DNA of 64,000 nt from Promethearchaeota archaeon Loki_b32 (GTDB lineage Archaea > Asgardarchaeota > Lokiarchaeia > Sigyniarchaeales > SOKP01). The position numbers were made by a program, and so were the translations under genes. Positions 6,960 through 13,200 of this stretch are shown one piece after another. How positions within the stretch are numbered: position 1 is the stretch's first letter; each line of letters begins with the position of its first letter. Below the pieces are notes generated by a model. That model was not told the DNA's origin. It did no database searches and worked only from the letters and a program-made list of their open reading frames with translations. The stretch is taken from assembly GCA_005223125.1 (NCBI GenBank), contig NJBH01000005.1, forward strand, positions 32,001-96,000, in the 5' to 3' direction.

Positions 6960-9848
6960 TCAAACATCAATATAAAGAGCAGGTTTAAATGGTTTTGCTC
7001 TAATGGCCCTATGTTTGGGATCAAAATCAGAGTTTATTACAATAACAGATTTAACTCGCTTTTCTAGATACGATTTATAATGCTCTAGCAACTTTATCTC
7101 ATCAATTTGTGGTATTTTCTTCTCCCAAATCCGTTCTTTTAATTGAGTTTTAATAAAAGGAATAAGATCTTTATTAGATATTAACTCTATATCTTTTTTC
7201 AAATCAGACATTATTTCAGCAAAATTATCCTTTTTTGATATAATTAGATATGAAACTCGATATTTCCATTTAGGGGCTGTATATAAATGTATTTTATTAA
7301 ATTTCTCTGATTTTATTACTTTTTTTATATTGAAAACATCCTCGATGACATTTGAGATATATTCAAATTCAAGTTCAAGTTTGCTATTAATATATTGTTT
7401 ATTAAAATCTCCCCATACTTGAGTTGATATAAAACTCTCATTTCCAGCAATTTCCCATAATTCTTCACATAAATGTGGCATAGTTAGGGAAAGAATTTTC
7501 AACCAATCAGGATAAATTAGTTTAAAAACTGTTAGGAAATCATTTATATTATCTGTATCCCTTGAAAAATCCTGTATCAGATTAAACGCTTCATAAAAAG
7601 ACGTTTGGAGATATCTTCTTATATTAAATTCTTTTAATGCCGCTTCTGCCTCAACGAACTTCTTGATAATTTTTGATAGCATTGCTTTTGAATAATTAGA
7701 TTTAATATTTTCATATTTTGCTTTTTGTTCCCTTAATTGATTAACTTTATCAGAAAAAAATTCGAAGAACTTGAGGACATGGTTTCTAACGGTCTCAATT
7801 TCTTTCTTGCGGAAATCCATGTATGCACTGAAATCAGCATTGTGGGAGATATAAAATCTAAATAAATCAGCCCCGTAATTCTTTTGGATATCCGCAAGAG
7901 AAATTACATTCCCCTTTGACTTACCCATTTTCTGTCCTTCAATAATTACAGGTTCAATTAACGATATTAATTTTGGCCAATTTTTTTCTGGAAAAATTGC
8001 TACATGGTGGAAAATATAAAAACTTAAGTGGTTAGAGATATGCATTATTGCTGTATGACGATGGTCAACAGGGTACCAATAGAGAAACTCATTTCGTAAT
8101 TCATTAAGGATCTCTTTACTAATATTAATCTCTTTAGAGAATTTGCTTGTAACTCCTTTTTCTAAAAAGACATAATCGAAAAATTCTGGAGTCAATTGTT
8201 CTGGTTTGATTTGATAATCTTTTATTTTATATGAAATTGTATAGAAAGCCATATAAATTGTTGAATCACTCAAAGATTCTATTATCCAATCTTTATTAAA
8301 AGGTAGTTTAGTTCCTATTCCTCTTAATCTAGCACACGGTCTTTTTTCTAGCCAATTAAATATATTCTCAAAGTTTAATCGATATTTTTTTGGTACTATT
8401 TTCATCTTATTAAGGCATTTTAACGATTCTTCTTTCCAATCTCCTGCTTCAAAATTAAGAAACCATTGATCCTTTAGAATAGAAACGATAACTTCTGTAC
8501 CACATCTACATGTAAGATTTTTTGTAACAGGAATATATAATTTGTCTGCTTTATTTTCTTCAATCAAGTCATATGAAACTTGTCTAGCAGCATCACTCAC
8601 TTTCATTCCTTGATATTTTCCACATTTATCATTAAGTACACCATTATAATACTCATCTTTATAATTATCACTAGTTGCTAAATCGAGTTTTTCTGTGTCT
8701 TTTTGGGAATCGACTTCAAACTTGTCACAATAGATTTTTGCTGGAAAGTCTTTAAATCCTTTTAATTCAATTATTTTAATTGGATATATTAATTCTATTT
8801 GTCGTTCATTCAGATCATATCTCTTAATTAGATCTTTATTCTTTTGTAAATCGATTAGGGCAATATAATCATAAGGAGCGTGAGCGGGAACTGAATAAAC
8901 AACACCTGTAGCTGTTGAGGTTTCAACAAAATCTCCTGGTAAAATAGGAATTTCTTTAATCCCATAAAAATCTGCTGCATTTTTTCCAATAATTTCTTTT
9001 CCACTAATCTTATCCACGATCTTAACATCTTTCCCTTGATTCTCTAATAAGAATGTTGCTTCTTCAGAGATAAACCAAACTTCATTGTTCACAGAAGCTT
9101 TTATATAGTTTCCATTAGGATTTATCCAGATATTTGTAACTCCATAAATAGTTTCTGGTCTTAGTGTAGATGCAACAAGAAAACCATCTTCAAATGGGAA
9201 TTTAATACATATATATTCATTAATACTTAGATCCAACTCATCTCCCCGTGAAATATCATCTTCTCCAACGGCATTGTTGTCTTGAGGACAATAAAGAATT
9301 GGATATTCACCCTTTTCAATATAATCTCTCTCTTTTAAACGAAAATATTGCCATTCAATAAATTTATTATAAATTAAATCTCCAGTAGTAAATTCTCTCC
9401 TCCAATCTAAACTCATACCAATAGCCTTAAAATCAATTTTCATTGTTTTCGAAAAATAATTAACAACATTCCAAGGTTCTATAAAGCTTTCTACAATTTT
9501 TTTTACTTCTTGACGATCTTTAGTATGTAGACTAACATATTCTTTCATTCGTTCCTTTGTCAATTGATCCTTTCTTCCTATAGAAGAAGAAATTGCTAAA
9601 ACAGGTGTACCTGTAATATGAAATGCCATAGGATATAAAACCTTATATCCTTGTGCTCTATAATACCTTGCAAATATGTCTCCATTTATAAAACTCCTTC
9701 CATGGCCAATATGTAGAGGACCAGAAGCATATGGATAAGGTGATGTTATAAATATTTTCTCTTTGTTAGGATCTGGATTTGCTTCGAATATCCTTTCTTG
9801 CTCCCATCTATCTTGCCATTTCTTTTCAATTTGTTGTGGATCATACAT
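6960..9848 (-). CDS. leuS: Leucine--tRNA ligase, archaeal/eukaryotic type
   Basis: PYASGPLHIGH, STLRPETIYG, GVVYSVPAHAPYDY editing motif, ESLSDSTIY, KMGKS. Confidence 0.97.
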   Translation of the reverse strand: MYDPQQIEKKWQDRWEQERIFEANPDPNKEKIFITSPYPYASGPLHIGHGRSFINGDIFARYYRAQGYKVLYPMAFHITGTPVLAISSSIGRKDQLTKERMKEYVSLHTKDRQEVKKIVESFIEPWNVVNYFSKTMKIDFKAIGMSLDWRREFTTGDLIYNKFIEWQYFRLKERDYIEKGEYPILYCPQDNNAVGEDDISRGDELDLSINEYICIKFPFEDGFLVASTLRPETIYGVTNIWINPNGNYIKASVNNEVWFISEEATFLLENQGKDVKIVDKISGKEIIGKNAADFYGIKEIPILPGDFVETSTATGVVYSVPAHAPYDYIALIDLQKNKDLIKRYDLNERQIELIYPIKIIELKGFKDFPAKIYCDKFEVDSQKDTEKLDLATSDNYKDEYYNGVLNDKCGKYQGMKVSDAARQVSYDLIEENKADKLYIPVTKNLTCRCGTEVIVSILKDQWFLNFEAGDWKEESLKCLNKMKIVPKKYRLNFENIFNWLEKRPCARLRGIGTKLPFNKDWIIESLSDSTIYMAFYTISYKIKDYQIKPEQLTPEFFDYVFLEKGVTSKFSKEINISKEILNELRNEFLYWYPVDHRHTAIMHISNHLSFYIFHHVAIFPEKNWPKLISLIEPVIIEGQKMGKSKGNVISLADIQKNYGADLFRFYISHNADFSAYMDFRKKEIETVRNHVLKFFEFFSDKVNQLREQKAKYENIKSNYSKAMLSKIIKKFVEAEAALKEFNIRRYLQTSFYEAFNLIQDFSRDTDNINDFLTVFKLIYPDWLKILSLTMPHLCEELWEIAGNESFISTQVWGDFNKQYINSKLELEFEYISNVIEDVFNIKKVIKSEKFNKIHLYTAPKWKYRVSYLIISKKDNFAEIMSDLKKDIELISNKDLIPFIKTQLKERIWEKKIPQIDEIKLLEHYKSYLEKRVKSVIVINSDFDPKHRAIRAKPFKPALYIDV

Positions 9849-9949
9849 ATTATTTCACTCTTTTTTGGGTTTTCTCTTCTTTTCTATTTAATTTTTTTTG
9901 GAGTTAAAAACCACCTATAATCTCTTTCAATTAAATTTAAACGCTGAGC

Positions 9950-9998
9950 AAACAAATCCGTAGAAAAATTAAAAGAAAAAGAATATAAGGACTTGTTT
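9950..9998 (-). promoter_or_regulatory. Stem enclosing a U-rich tract in the leuS leader (candidate terminator/antiterminator element)
   Basis: Minus-strand AAACAAGUCC (9998-9989) pairs with GGAUUUGUUU (9959-9950), 10 bp with one G-U, enclosing UUCUUUUUCUUUUAAUUUUUC. Confidence 0.5.
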
Positions 9999-10001
9999 CA
10001 C

Positions 10002-10088
10002 TCAAGATAATAATAAAACTGCGAGTAAATTAACTAAGGATAGTACTTCCCTTACTTTCATCTTTGAAGCAGTTTTATTTGAAATCAT
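10002..10088 (-). CDS. Putative Leu-rich leader peptide (uORF) upstream of leuS: MISNKTASKMKVREVLSLVNLLAVLLLS
   Basis: Open frame from ATG 10088 (second in-frame ATG 10061) to TGA 10004-10002. Seven Leu codons in the last 13 sense codons, ending TTA TTA TTA TCT TGA. Co-oriented with leuS, 153 nt upstream of its start. Confidence 0.6.
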   Translation of the reverse strand: MISNKTASKMKVREVLSLVNLLAVLLLS

Positions 10089-10111
10089 TATAAAGAATAT
10101 ACATGTTTTTG

Positions 10112-10125
10112 TATTAAAATTTTTC
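10112..10125 (-). promoter_or_regulatory. Putative BRE/TATA promoter for the leuS leader transcript
   Basis: Minus strand GAAAAATTTTAATA lies about 24 nt before ATG 10088, the spacing expected for a leaderless archaeal transcript. Confidence 0.5.
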
Positions 10126-10294: not shown

Positions 10295-13200
10295 TTGAAG
10301 GAATCGAAAATAAATAAGGAAATTAACGTAGCAATAAAATCAGAAGAAAATTTTCTCGCAATTCTTAATTCTTTAACCGATCCTATGCATATTATTGATA
10401 GAGAATACAATATCCAATTTTTAAATTCAGCTATGGTACTATGGCTTAATAAATTGAACATAAATTCTGATCTTGTTGGTAAAACTCTTTTTGAAGAGTT
10501 TCCTCTCTTAGAATATGATAAAATCCATAACGAATATGACAAAGTCTTCAAAACTGGCGAACTTTTGATAACAAAAGAAGCAACTAAGCTAACTAAAGGT
10601 ATTATATTTACTGAGACTCTAAAAATTCCAGTTAAAAGTAATGGTAAAGTTGAGCAAGTTATAACGATTATGCGAGACATTACGGAACAAAAGAAAGCAG
10701 AAGAAAAATTAAAAGCATCTGAAGAGAAGTATAAGAATATTATCAGTAACCTTATGGATATAATAATAATATTAGATCTTAAAGGCAATTTCTTATATGT
10801 CAGTCCACAAATCTATGATATTTCTGGATTTAAACAAAAAGAGATAATCGGAAAAAATGGTTTCAAGTTGATGCACCCAGATGATATCAATAAGACTACT
10901 AGTGTATTAAAGGAGGCTATAGAACAGAAGAAGAGAATTTATATCGAATATCGCACATTACATAAGCAAGGTCATTATATAGAGGTATCTGCAAGTGGTA
11001 GGATTGTAAATATAGAAGGAGAAGATCGAATTTTCGCAGTAGTAAGAGACATTTCTGAGCATAAAATTTCTGAGCAAAAATTAAAAGAATCAGAAGAAAA
11101 ATATCGTCTAATTACTGAAAATGCAAATGATATGATTGCTATTTTAAATAACAAAATGGAGTATGAATATGTAAATGAAGCTGCTTTTCTAAATATTATG
11201 GGTAGAACTAAAGATGATTTAATTGGATATAATTCTTTACATTGGGCTCATCCTGATGATATTGAAAAATCTATAAATGCTTTTAAAGATGGTTGGGAGA
11301 AAGGAGAAGCATTTATCCAAGCAAGATTCAGAGATACACAAGAAAAATATCATTCGCTCGAAGTAAGAGGAAAATTAATTATTGATCATAAAGGAGAAAA
11401 AAAGGTTTTAATAGTCTCACGAGATATTTCAGAAAGAAAGGAGGCCGAACAGAAATTAAAAGATTCTGAAGAAAAATATCGATATTTAATTGAAAATTCT
11501 ATTGAGGGTGTTTGGGTAATAGATTCTGAAGCAAAAACAATCCTAGTTAATCCTAGTATGGCACATATTTTAGGTTATACGGTAGAAGAAATGATTGGAA
11601 AATCTTTATTCTCATTTACAAATGAAGAACAGGTAAAAATTACCAAAAATCATTTAGAGAAAAGAAAGAAAGGCATCTCTGAAGAAAGAGACGCCTACTT
11701 GCTTCATAAAGACGGAAATAAGGTTTATCTGAGAATAAGAGCAACCCCTATTTTCGACAGTGAAGGTAATTATGAAGGAACATATGCTTTTTTGGCAGAT
11801 ATAACCCAAAAAATGTTAGCGGAACAGAAATTGAAAGAATCGGAAGAAAGATTTAGAACATTATTTGAAATCGCTCCCGCTTCTATTTCTGTTTTAGATT
11901 TAGATGGGAATATTATCTTAAGCAACCAGAAATTTTGTAATCTTCATGGTGTGAAAAACCCAGAACTATTGGAAGGAAGGAAAATTTTAGAATTCATAGC
12001 AGAAAAAGATTGGTCAAAATTAAAGGAAGCTATGAAAAAGTCTTTTGAAGGATTACCCAGAGGACTTAATCAATATACAATGCTTAAAGATAATGGAACA
12101 GAATTTCCTGCCGAAGCAATTAGTTCAGGTATTAAAAATAAAAAAGGTGAAATTATAGGTCTTATAGGAGTTGCTCAGGATATTACAGAACGTAATATTG
12201 CTGAGCAAAAACTAAAGGAATCTGAAGAAAAATATTCACATCTTTTCAAGAGTTCTCCGTACTCAATCCTAATTGCTAATATGAATGGAAAAGTAATTGA
12301 TTGTAACTTTTTAGAAGATAAAATAACAGGATATTTAAAAGAGGAAATAATCGGTAAAAACATGCTTGATATACCAATGTTTCCGAAAGAGTATCTTCCT
12401 ATAGTGATTAAAGATTTCAAAACTCTACTAAAAGGAAGAATTCCCAAACCTAATGAAATACAGATTCGAAAGAAAAATGGAACTCTGGTGTGGGTACAGC
12501 CGACTGCTTCTATTTTTAAAATCGAAGGTGAATCTTACATGTAGATTATAATGCAAGAGATTACTGAAAGAAAGAATTCTGAAGAAAAATTAAAAGAATC
12601 CGAAGAAAAATTCAGAACTATTGCAGAACAATCTTTCTTAGGTATTGCTATTCTACAAAATGATACTGTTAGTTATGTTAATGAGCAACTTGCTTATAAA
12701 TTTGGTTATACCACAGAGGAAATTATGAAGTGGGGAGTAGGAGGTTTTATGAAAGTTATATATCCCGATGATAGAAAAATGGTTGCTGAGCAAGCTAAGA
12801 AAAAGCAATCGGGTGAACCAGATACTGTTAATCAATATCAATTCAGAGGAATAAAAAAGAATGGAAATATAATATGGTTAGAAATATTTTCAAAAACAAT
12901 TAATTATAAGGGAAAACCAGCTGATTTTGTTACAATTCACGATATAACTGAAGAGAAGCTAGCTGGACAAAAATTAAAAGAATCTGAAGAAAATTTCAGA
13001 ACTATTGCTGAACAAGCTTTTATGGGAACTTTAATAATTCAAAATGATCAAGTGACGTATGTGAATGATGCTTTGCTTCAAATCTTTGAGTTCTCGCAAG
13101 ATGAAGTTAATTATTGGAAGAAAGATAATCTACTCAAACTAATTCATCCTGAAGATTTACATTATCTAAGAGAATATCGCGAACAATTACGAAGTGGTGA

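Follow-up and report, generated by a model that had tools for sequence, protein, structure and literature searches.

A probable leucine-responsive leader with a conserved short reading frame and RNA fold precedes an archaeal-type leuS in a family of Asgard archaea

The archaeal-type leucyl-tRNA synthetase gene (leuS) of Promethearchaeota archaeon Loki_b32 is preceded by a leader that we interpret, from sequence comparison, as a leucine-responsive, ribosome-mediated cis-regulatory element. We consider this reading probable, at roughly 65%. The leader lies on the minus strand of the window, the 64,000-nucleotide stretch of DNA that was analysed, and combines a promoter, a short upstream open reading frame (uORF) ending in a run of leucine codons, and four conserved helices (P1 to P4). 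An earlier note on this DNA had described a BRE/TATA-like stretch, an ATG (10088) at leaderless distance from it, a 28-codon ORF and leuS, and all of these are present on the minus strand where it had placed them. In the direction of transcription, the features are:

10112-10125, minus strand: promoter, BRE-like purines and a TATA 8-mer at 10119-10112; nearly invariant in 19 orthologs
10002-10088, minus strand: uORF (P0001), 28 codons in leaderless geometry, ending Leu-Leu-Ala-Val-Leu-Leu-Leu-Ser-stop
10069-10079, minus strand: P1 5' arm, codons 4-7, pairing with 10022-10012; all 11 pairs supported
10035-10054, minus strand: P2 inner hairpin formed by 10054-10049 and 10040-10035, with compensatory replacement of GC by UA/AU
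10008-10028, minus strand: regulatory codon run, Leu codons 21-22 (10028-10023, unpaired) and 25-27 (10016-10008)
10012-10022, minus strand: P1 3' arm, Ala-Val-Leu-Leu codons
9989-10004, minus strand: P3 5' arm, beginning with the third base of the Ser codon and continuing through the adjacent stop codon
9971-9984, minus strand: pyrimidine tract in the P3 loop, with T5CT4 at 9980-9971; nearly invariant in 19 orthologs
9975-9984, minus strand: P4 5' arm, within the pyrimidine tract of the P3 loop
9945-9959, minus strand: P3 3' arm, partner of 10004-9989
9919-9928, minus strand: P4 3' arm, pairing with the pyrimidine tract and forming a pseudoknot with P3
9849-9918, minus strand: spacer before leuS, poorly conserved; conservation decays here
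6960-9848, minus strand: leuS, encoding a 962-aa leucyl-tRNA synthetase of archaeal type; TIGR00395 score 932 bits (cut-off 648.5)

Leucine accounts for 7 of the last 13 sense codons of the uORF, which ends TTA TTA TTA TCT TGA, exactly as the earlier note had reported. The Ala-Val codons of P1 separate Leu codons 21-22 from codons 25-27. The source genome has a GC content of 30%, TTA makes up half of its Leu codons, and Leu contributes 13% of the residues of random uORFs. Ranked by Leu enrichment among the 2371 intergenic uORFs of the whole source genome, the tail comes 93rd; the leuS uORF is the sole member of this set with at least seven Leu in its last 13 codons. The minimum free energy of the source sequence alone has a z-score of -0.97, and 36 of 200 shuffles fold as well. 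The earlier note had cautioned that TTA is common in AT-rich DNA. The single-genome statistics are weak, and it is the family-wide comparison that shows the element to be real.

The leuS uORF is found at the same distance upstream in all 19 genus orthologs (66-88% protein identity), where it has 27-44 codons, is located at -240 to -150 and carries the same Leu-rich end. Conservation extends from the TATA box until some 70 nt short of leuS, where it decays. A covariance model of the leader (~185 nt), trained on the 19 genus sequences, matches 47 of 54 genus genomes and 87 of 121 family genomes, in 10 of 13 genera; the compared groups are relatives, so these counts represent few independent events. 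Among 19 genomes from three sister families of the order, the model has no match. A genome normally has one copy, always on the same strand as its gene and directly upstream of it.

The reading frame itself is conserved. The ATG position is kept in 64 of the 65 family leaders, and in 64 of 64 the frame is open up to a stop codon that always stands directly before the P3 5' arm. The other two frames are open in 0/64 and 6/64 copies, and shuffled sequences of equal composition have an open frame with a probability of about 0.10. The conserved frame is 26-30 codons long. The copy without the ATG (locus L118, from another genus of the family, before an FrhB-TrmB gene) is a degenerate outlier that has kept its helices. 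The TATA 8-mer starts 31 nt before the uORF ATG, which lies 23 nt after the box, and this start falls at -31 to -34 in 51 of the 65 family leaders. Genome-wide, TATA-like 8-mers before start codons peak at -33 to -29, a peak that we read as the leaderless gene class. The TATA boxes of these leaders lie on this peak or slightly upstream of it, which supports a leaderless geometry for the uORF.

The two unpaired Leu positions use all six codons (TTA, TTG, CTT, CTC, CTA and CTG) across the 39 archaeal-type LeuRS leaders. This synonymous variation at unpaired positions indicates selection on the amino acid or its tRNAs, and not on pairing. Two of the five tail Leu codons lie within P1 and could be kept for pairing alone. 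Outside the codon run the peptide varies freely, and its residues change whenever P1 covaries. A small membrane protein was rejected as a reading on account of this change of residues, and of the Leu-type tail, which is short and has a charged residue. The uORF is evidently a conserved frame held open by selection, with a Leu run that is tied to LeuRS genes.

The conserved part of the leader is also structured. The 15-bp helix P3 contains a bulge of one base, and 12 of its 13 core pairs are doubly changed among the 65 leaders. The 8 contiguous pairs of P4 are retained at about 99% within the genus, the end pair covarying between GC, AU and GU; P4 lay outside the search model, yet it covaries family-wide, and other genera show, for instance, the arms ACCUUUUUC and GAAAAAGGU. 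Covariation is strongest in P3 and P4. Paired cells amount to 92.7% in the genus alignment, compared with 37-52% in slid-partner controls. Across the 65 family leaders, in an alignment that was fitted to P1-P3 and hence leans towards these three helices, double (compensatory) changes occur in 33 of 42 base pairs; the doubly changed cells number 188 against 58 +/- 9 in shuffles, and none of 500 shuffles reaches any of five measures. No Rfam model matches the leader at threshold (the best is Phe_leader, 17.4 bits vs 55, E = 6.3), and T-box and Leu_leader are unlisted in the Rfam search even at E up to 10.

These helices only partly coincide with the stems that the earlier note had drawn, in which P1 and P4 were missed. 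Its 10-bp stem looping out the U-tract is present and is really the core of P3. The 7-bp stem UUUACUC/GAGUGAA can form in the source sequence but is not conserved: the central pair is broken in 15 of 19 leaders, and the stem does no better than shuffles. Similarly, UAAGGG and two copies of UCCUUA (10040-10035 and 9991-9986) exist, but the alternative pairing that they would offer is not conserved; the pairing with the downstream copy is lost exactly where the inner hairpin covaries and again does no better than shuffles. The switch between alternative pairings that the note proposed is therefore not borne out, since a systematic search covering every conserved helix revealed no mutually exclusive pairing that is conserved. 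The search yielded a register slip of P3, pairings of an A-rich loop to the U-tract, and 5-6 bp between the 5' arm of P1 and the 3' arm of P3, all of them too weak to count as a switch. No conserved hairpin precedes the U-tract, which lies inside the 29-nt P3 loop, 6-8 nt after the 5' arm. There is likewise no conserved pairing with the leuS start or ribosome-binding region, which is itself poorly conserved. Two candidate elements were discarded: in the MFE fold the beginning of the uORF pairs with the SD region of leuS, but this pairing is not conserved, and a GGTGG motif after P4 is represented by GGTG in just 22 of the 65 leaders.

The codon run varies with the gene downstream. The composition of the last 10 codons differs between leaders as follows:

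LeuRS leaders (43): Leu 5.5-6, Val 1-1.7, Ile about 0
leaders of the small ORF and of acyl-CoA dehydrogenase: Leu 3-3.75, Val 4.6-6, Ile about 0
FrhB-TrmB leaders: Leu 2.4, Val 2.0, Ile 4.1

Leu tails precede three types of LeuRS, namely the 962-aa archaeal-type enzyme, a 950-aa archaeal-type paralog and, in another genus, a bacterial-type enzyme. Together with the uORF in 19/19 orthologs and the frame open in 64/64 leaders, this lends good support to the core of the earlier note, a leucine-sensing leader peptide. Val-run leaders precede a short SD-led ORF (loci L110-L115, L117, L119, L120, L122, L125 and L070), which is convergent with an aminotransferase related to LL-diaminopimelate aminotransferase (DapL-like), and in one genus a Val-run leader stands before acyl-CoA dehydrogenase and EtfB (L123). 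In relatives from the genus of the source genome, leaders with Ile/Val/Leu tails are found before a gene for an FrhB-like and TrmB HTH fusion (L061-L064, L066, L068 and L072). The FrhB-TrmB gene and the short ORF have no clear amino-acid link. In one locus checked, the FrhB-TrmB gene is followed by a MeaB GTPase gene, and a link of the pair to branched-chain acyl-CoA metabolism is possible.

Where the codon run is switched, the P1 5' arm switches too, with Asn/Lys codons opposite Leu and Thr codons opposite Val. As both arms of P1 change together with the run, the helix and the codon identity are maintained, and the peptide sequence as such is not. The bacterial-type LeuRS leader of the other genus has its own Leu-type P1 arms, and it is about equally similar to the Val-type leaders of its own genus and to archaeal-type LeuRS leaders. 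It groups with the Val-type leaders in a weak tree of leaders that omits the tail columns and was interpreted without support values (about 220 columns, many with numerous gaps), a hint that this leader was retuned to Leu independently.

The source genome has two LeuRS genes, the second on another contig (C11:12081-14855, locus L083), whose product joins a bacterial-type core (TIGR00396, 957 bits) to an archaeal-type C-terminal domain. No leader of this family precedes the second gene. A 251-aa ORF near it (C11:19530-20285, L080) matches solely the C-terminal part of bacterial LeuRS. In the leader-linked LeuRS, KMGKS replaces the canonical KMSKS (window 7896-7910, residues about 640-644), and the 950-aa paralog of relatives has KMSKR at this position. 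The closest relatives of the 962-aa enzyme outside the family are labelled Aenigmarchaeota (47-53% identity; loci L154, L155 and L201), and other Asgard groups score lower, at 41-44% identity; this affinity may reflect a transfer. The divergent neighbour at 10295-12544 on the plus strand encodes a 749-aa protein with about five PAS domains, and among its Pfam matches no output domain was recognised. The spacer between the leader and leuS contains a weak SD-like GAGTGA, and in or near it are two TATA-like stretches, ATTAAATA at 9892-9885 and TTTAATTG at 9935-9928, the latter overlapping P4. Because these stretches lie downstream of the leader, leuS may have a separate promoter in the variable spacer.

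The earlier note had also suggested looking for a conserved Leu-rich uORF with covarying stems in leuS orthologs, which the comparisons above revealed (19/19 uORFs; 33/42 pairs doubly changed), and for cognate uORFs before other genes. When all intergenic uORFs of the source genome were ranked for codon runs, two further cognate leaders were found. A 24-codon uORF ending in an Ile run (C49:49099-49174; L079:265-339) stands before a 953-aa IleRS (C49:49335-52196) and is kept in 14 of 14 orthologs of this enzyme; it is absent before the canonical 1048-aa IleRS of relatives. The 5' segment of this ileS leader, GUGGAUGUGGA, can pair either with the part of the uORF that immediately precedes the Ile run or with a downstream hairpin loop, and the matching loop has no conserved T-run of at least 5. 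The start of IleRS-953, 7 nt after GGTG, appears to be ATT or ATA in many orthologs and ATG in few (L079:501-512; L084-L097), which makes a non-AUG start codon possible. The second leader is a 16-codon uORF with four Trp at alternating positions (C61:57501-57551; L077:300-350) before TrpB2 (C61:57702-59117). It is kept, with 4-5 Trp, in 15 of 15 genus orthologs, and T-runs lie about 35 nt after its stop codon. Other top-ranked uORFs were set aside as non-cognate: a poly-Phe uORF before an ABC ATPase, which is a T-run, a His-rich one before a SerB-like gene and a Gly-rich one before a LeuRS fragment. Since three unrelated leaders each carry the cognate amino acid, a ribosome-based sensor is the economical reading. 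The archaeal-type LeuRS and the second IleRS would then be regulated paralogs, and this hints at a starvation-inducible set of synthetases.

The sensing principle is well known from bacterial leader-peptide attenuators such as leuL, trpL and ilvL of E. coli, and pheM before pheST. Like these, the Asgard leader has a short ORF with a cognate codon run directly upstream of its gene and a U-tract after it; as in pheM-pheST the target is a synthetase gene, and as in the ilv leaders paralogous copies carry mixes of Val, Ile and Leu. It differs in being archaeal, in its apparently leaderless ORF, and in a codon run at the end of the ORF that forms one arm of P1. Instead of a GC-rich hairpin followed by a U-run, it has a pseudoknotted U-tract in a hairpin loop; it has no conserved terminator/antiterminator alternative, and the Rfam leader models fail on it. 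T-box leaders of Firmicutes, for instance those of the second copies thrZ and tyrZ, read uncharged tRNA directly, without a ribosome. The analogy with them is functional, a synthetase paralog under control of the charging state of its own tRNA, but the Asgard leader has a conserved ORF and no T-box match. The model that we propose below also resembles tnaC and other Rho-dependent attenuators, where a ribosome stalled near the end of the leader ORF keeps a termination factor off the nascent RNA; unlike in tnaC, the factor here would be aCPSF1/FttA at the U-tract, which is a matter of pure inference.

How the leader might act is a more tentative matter, and the specific mechanism that follows, a gating of termination, is possible but doubtful in both its steps and its direction. 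Transcription would begin no more than 3 nt from the AUG, and the leaderless 5' end would take up a ribosome before synthesis of the RNA is complete. With plentiful Leu-tRNA, the ribosome would finish and leave, and the naked U-tract 22-33 nt past the stop codon would let RNA polymerase terminate, either intrinsically or with aCPSF1/FttA. With scarce Leu-tRNA, the ribosome would stall on the last Leu codons and cover the start of P3. Its front would then be about 10-17 nt behind a polymerase at the U-tract, where it could hinder termination or exclude the factor and so permit read-through into leuS. P3 and P4 would fold in the read-through RNA and sequester the U-tract; P1, for its part, would shut off the 5' end behind the first ribosome. 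The assumed direction of the response follows pheM-pheST and T-box-controlled synthetases as analogues. T5CT4 is a candidate terminator of the archaeal kind, in which U-tracts act together with aCPSF1/FttA (PMC8716108, PMC11616081). The source genome is enriched in oligo-T runs after genes, and T-runs of 5, common in AT-rich DNA, are present in about half of its 80-nt intergenic stretches. Transcription reaches the 3' arms of P3 and P4 only after the U-tract, so they cannot decide termination there, and the model leaves their strong conservation unexplained.

The late synthesis of these arms, the lack of an alternative pairing and the possible leuS promoter together make a serious rival of a sensor with another output, in which stalling remodels P1, P3 and P4 and alters leuS translation, or mRNA stability or processing, instead of termination. 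We regard this as unlikely but worth keeping in view. It would account for the strongest covariation of the leader falling in helices that form only once the U-tract has been made, and it would suit the ileS leader of the same genome, given the T-run missing from its loop. The closest experimental analogue, the leaderless polycysteine sORFs of mycobacteria, works at the level of translation, where it blocks a duplex (Canestrari et al., bioRxiv 10.1101/834739). There, as is predicted for the Asgard leader, a leaderless short ORF is the first cistron, a codon run for a single amino acid is the sensor and several loci share the design; the domain, the amino acids and the RNA fold are different. 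A translational output at leuS is opposed by the absence of any conserved pairing that would hide its start or ribosome-binding region, unlike in the mycobacterial case, and by the roughly 70 variable nt that separate P4 from the leuS start codon.

The leader could instead be an independent unit, a short RNA or small-peptide gene that ends at the U-tract and is a mere neighbour of a leuS with a promoter of its own. A transcript ending at the U-tract would measure roughly 110-120 nt, TATA-like stretches follow at 9935-9928 and 9892-9885, and related copies precede unrelated genes. A free-standing gene is nevertheless hard to reconcile with a leader that is invariably same-strand and directly upstream, is linked to three types of LeuRS and has tail codons that track the downstream gene. 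A peptide product fits poorly with residues that are free to vary outside the codon run and that change with P1 covariation, and the conservation of P4 beyond the U-tract implies that read-through RNA is under selection. We consider this explanation improbable. Very improbable, in our estimate, is a structured RNA that binds a protein, a tRNA or a small ligand (riboswitch-like, T-box-like or through LeuRS autoregulation) and in which the frame is incidental. The strong covariation in four helices, including a pseudoknot with conserved loops, is what such an RNA would present. An incidental frame would hardly stay open in 64 of 64 deeply diverged copies, keep its ATG invariant at leaderless distance and always have its stop codon at the base of P3, nor would it show synonymous Leu codons at unpaired positions; the tails are homopolymeric codon runs and not arbitrary complementary sequence, and the RNA has no Rfam match. 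A chance ORF in AT-rich DNA, for which the abundance of TTA, the 13% Leu of random uORFs and the fold z-score of -0.97 could speak, has a negligible probability and is refuted by conservation, covariation and gene linkage across 87 family genomes.

Returning to a leucine-responsive leader read by the ribosome, its sensing principle is bacterial textbook knowledge; what is new is that the host is an archaeon, that the start is predicted to be leaderless, that P1 locks up the codon run and that the U-tract is part of a pseudoknot. Full-text literature searches found reports of leader-peptide attenuation for bacteria only, and none for archaea. The 190-nt leader is a defined test object from the closest prokaryotic relatives of eukaryotes, and it comes with natural variants (tails of Leu, Val or Ile, each with P1 arms that compensate) and with sister systems at ileS and trpB2. 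As its architecture has no terminator hairpin of the bacterial kind, it may shed light on the regulation of archaeal termination. At its widest, the leader family might represent a modular archaeal amino-acid sensor, in which a leaderless uORF keeps its swappable codons locked in the P1 helix together with its own 5' end, physical ribosome-polymerase coupling gates U-tract/FttA termination, and co-varying P1 arms retune the device between Leu, Val and Ile. We put this forward as a speculative possibility. If true, it would provide natural, testable evidence for functional transcription-translation coupling and attenuation in Asgard archaea.
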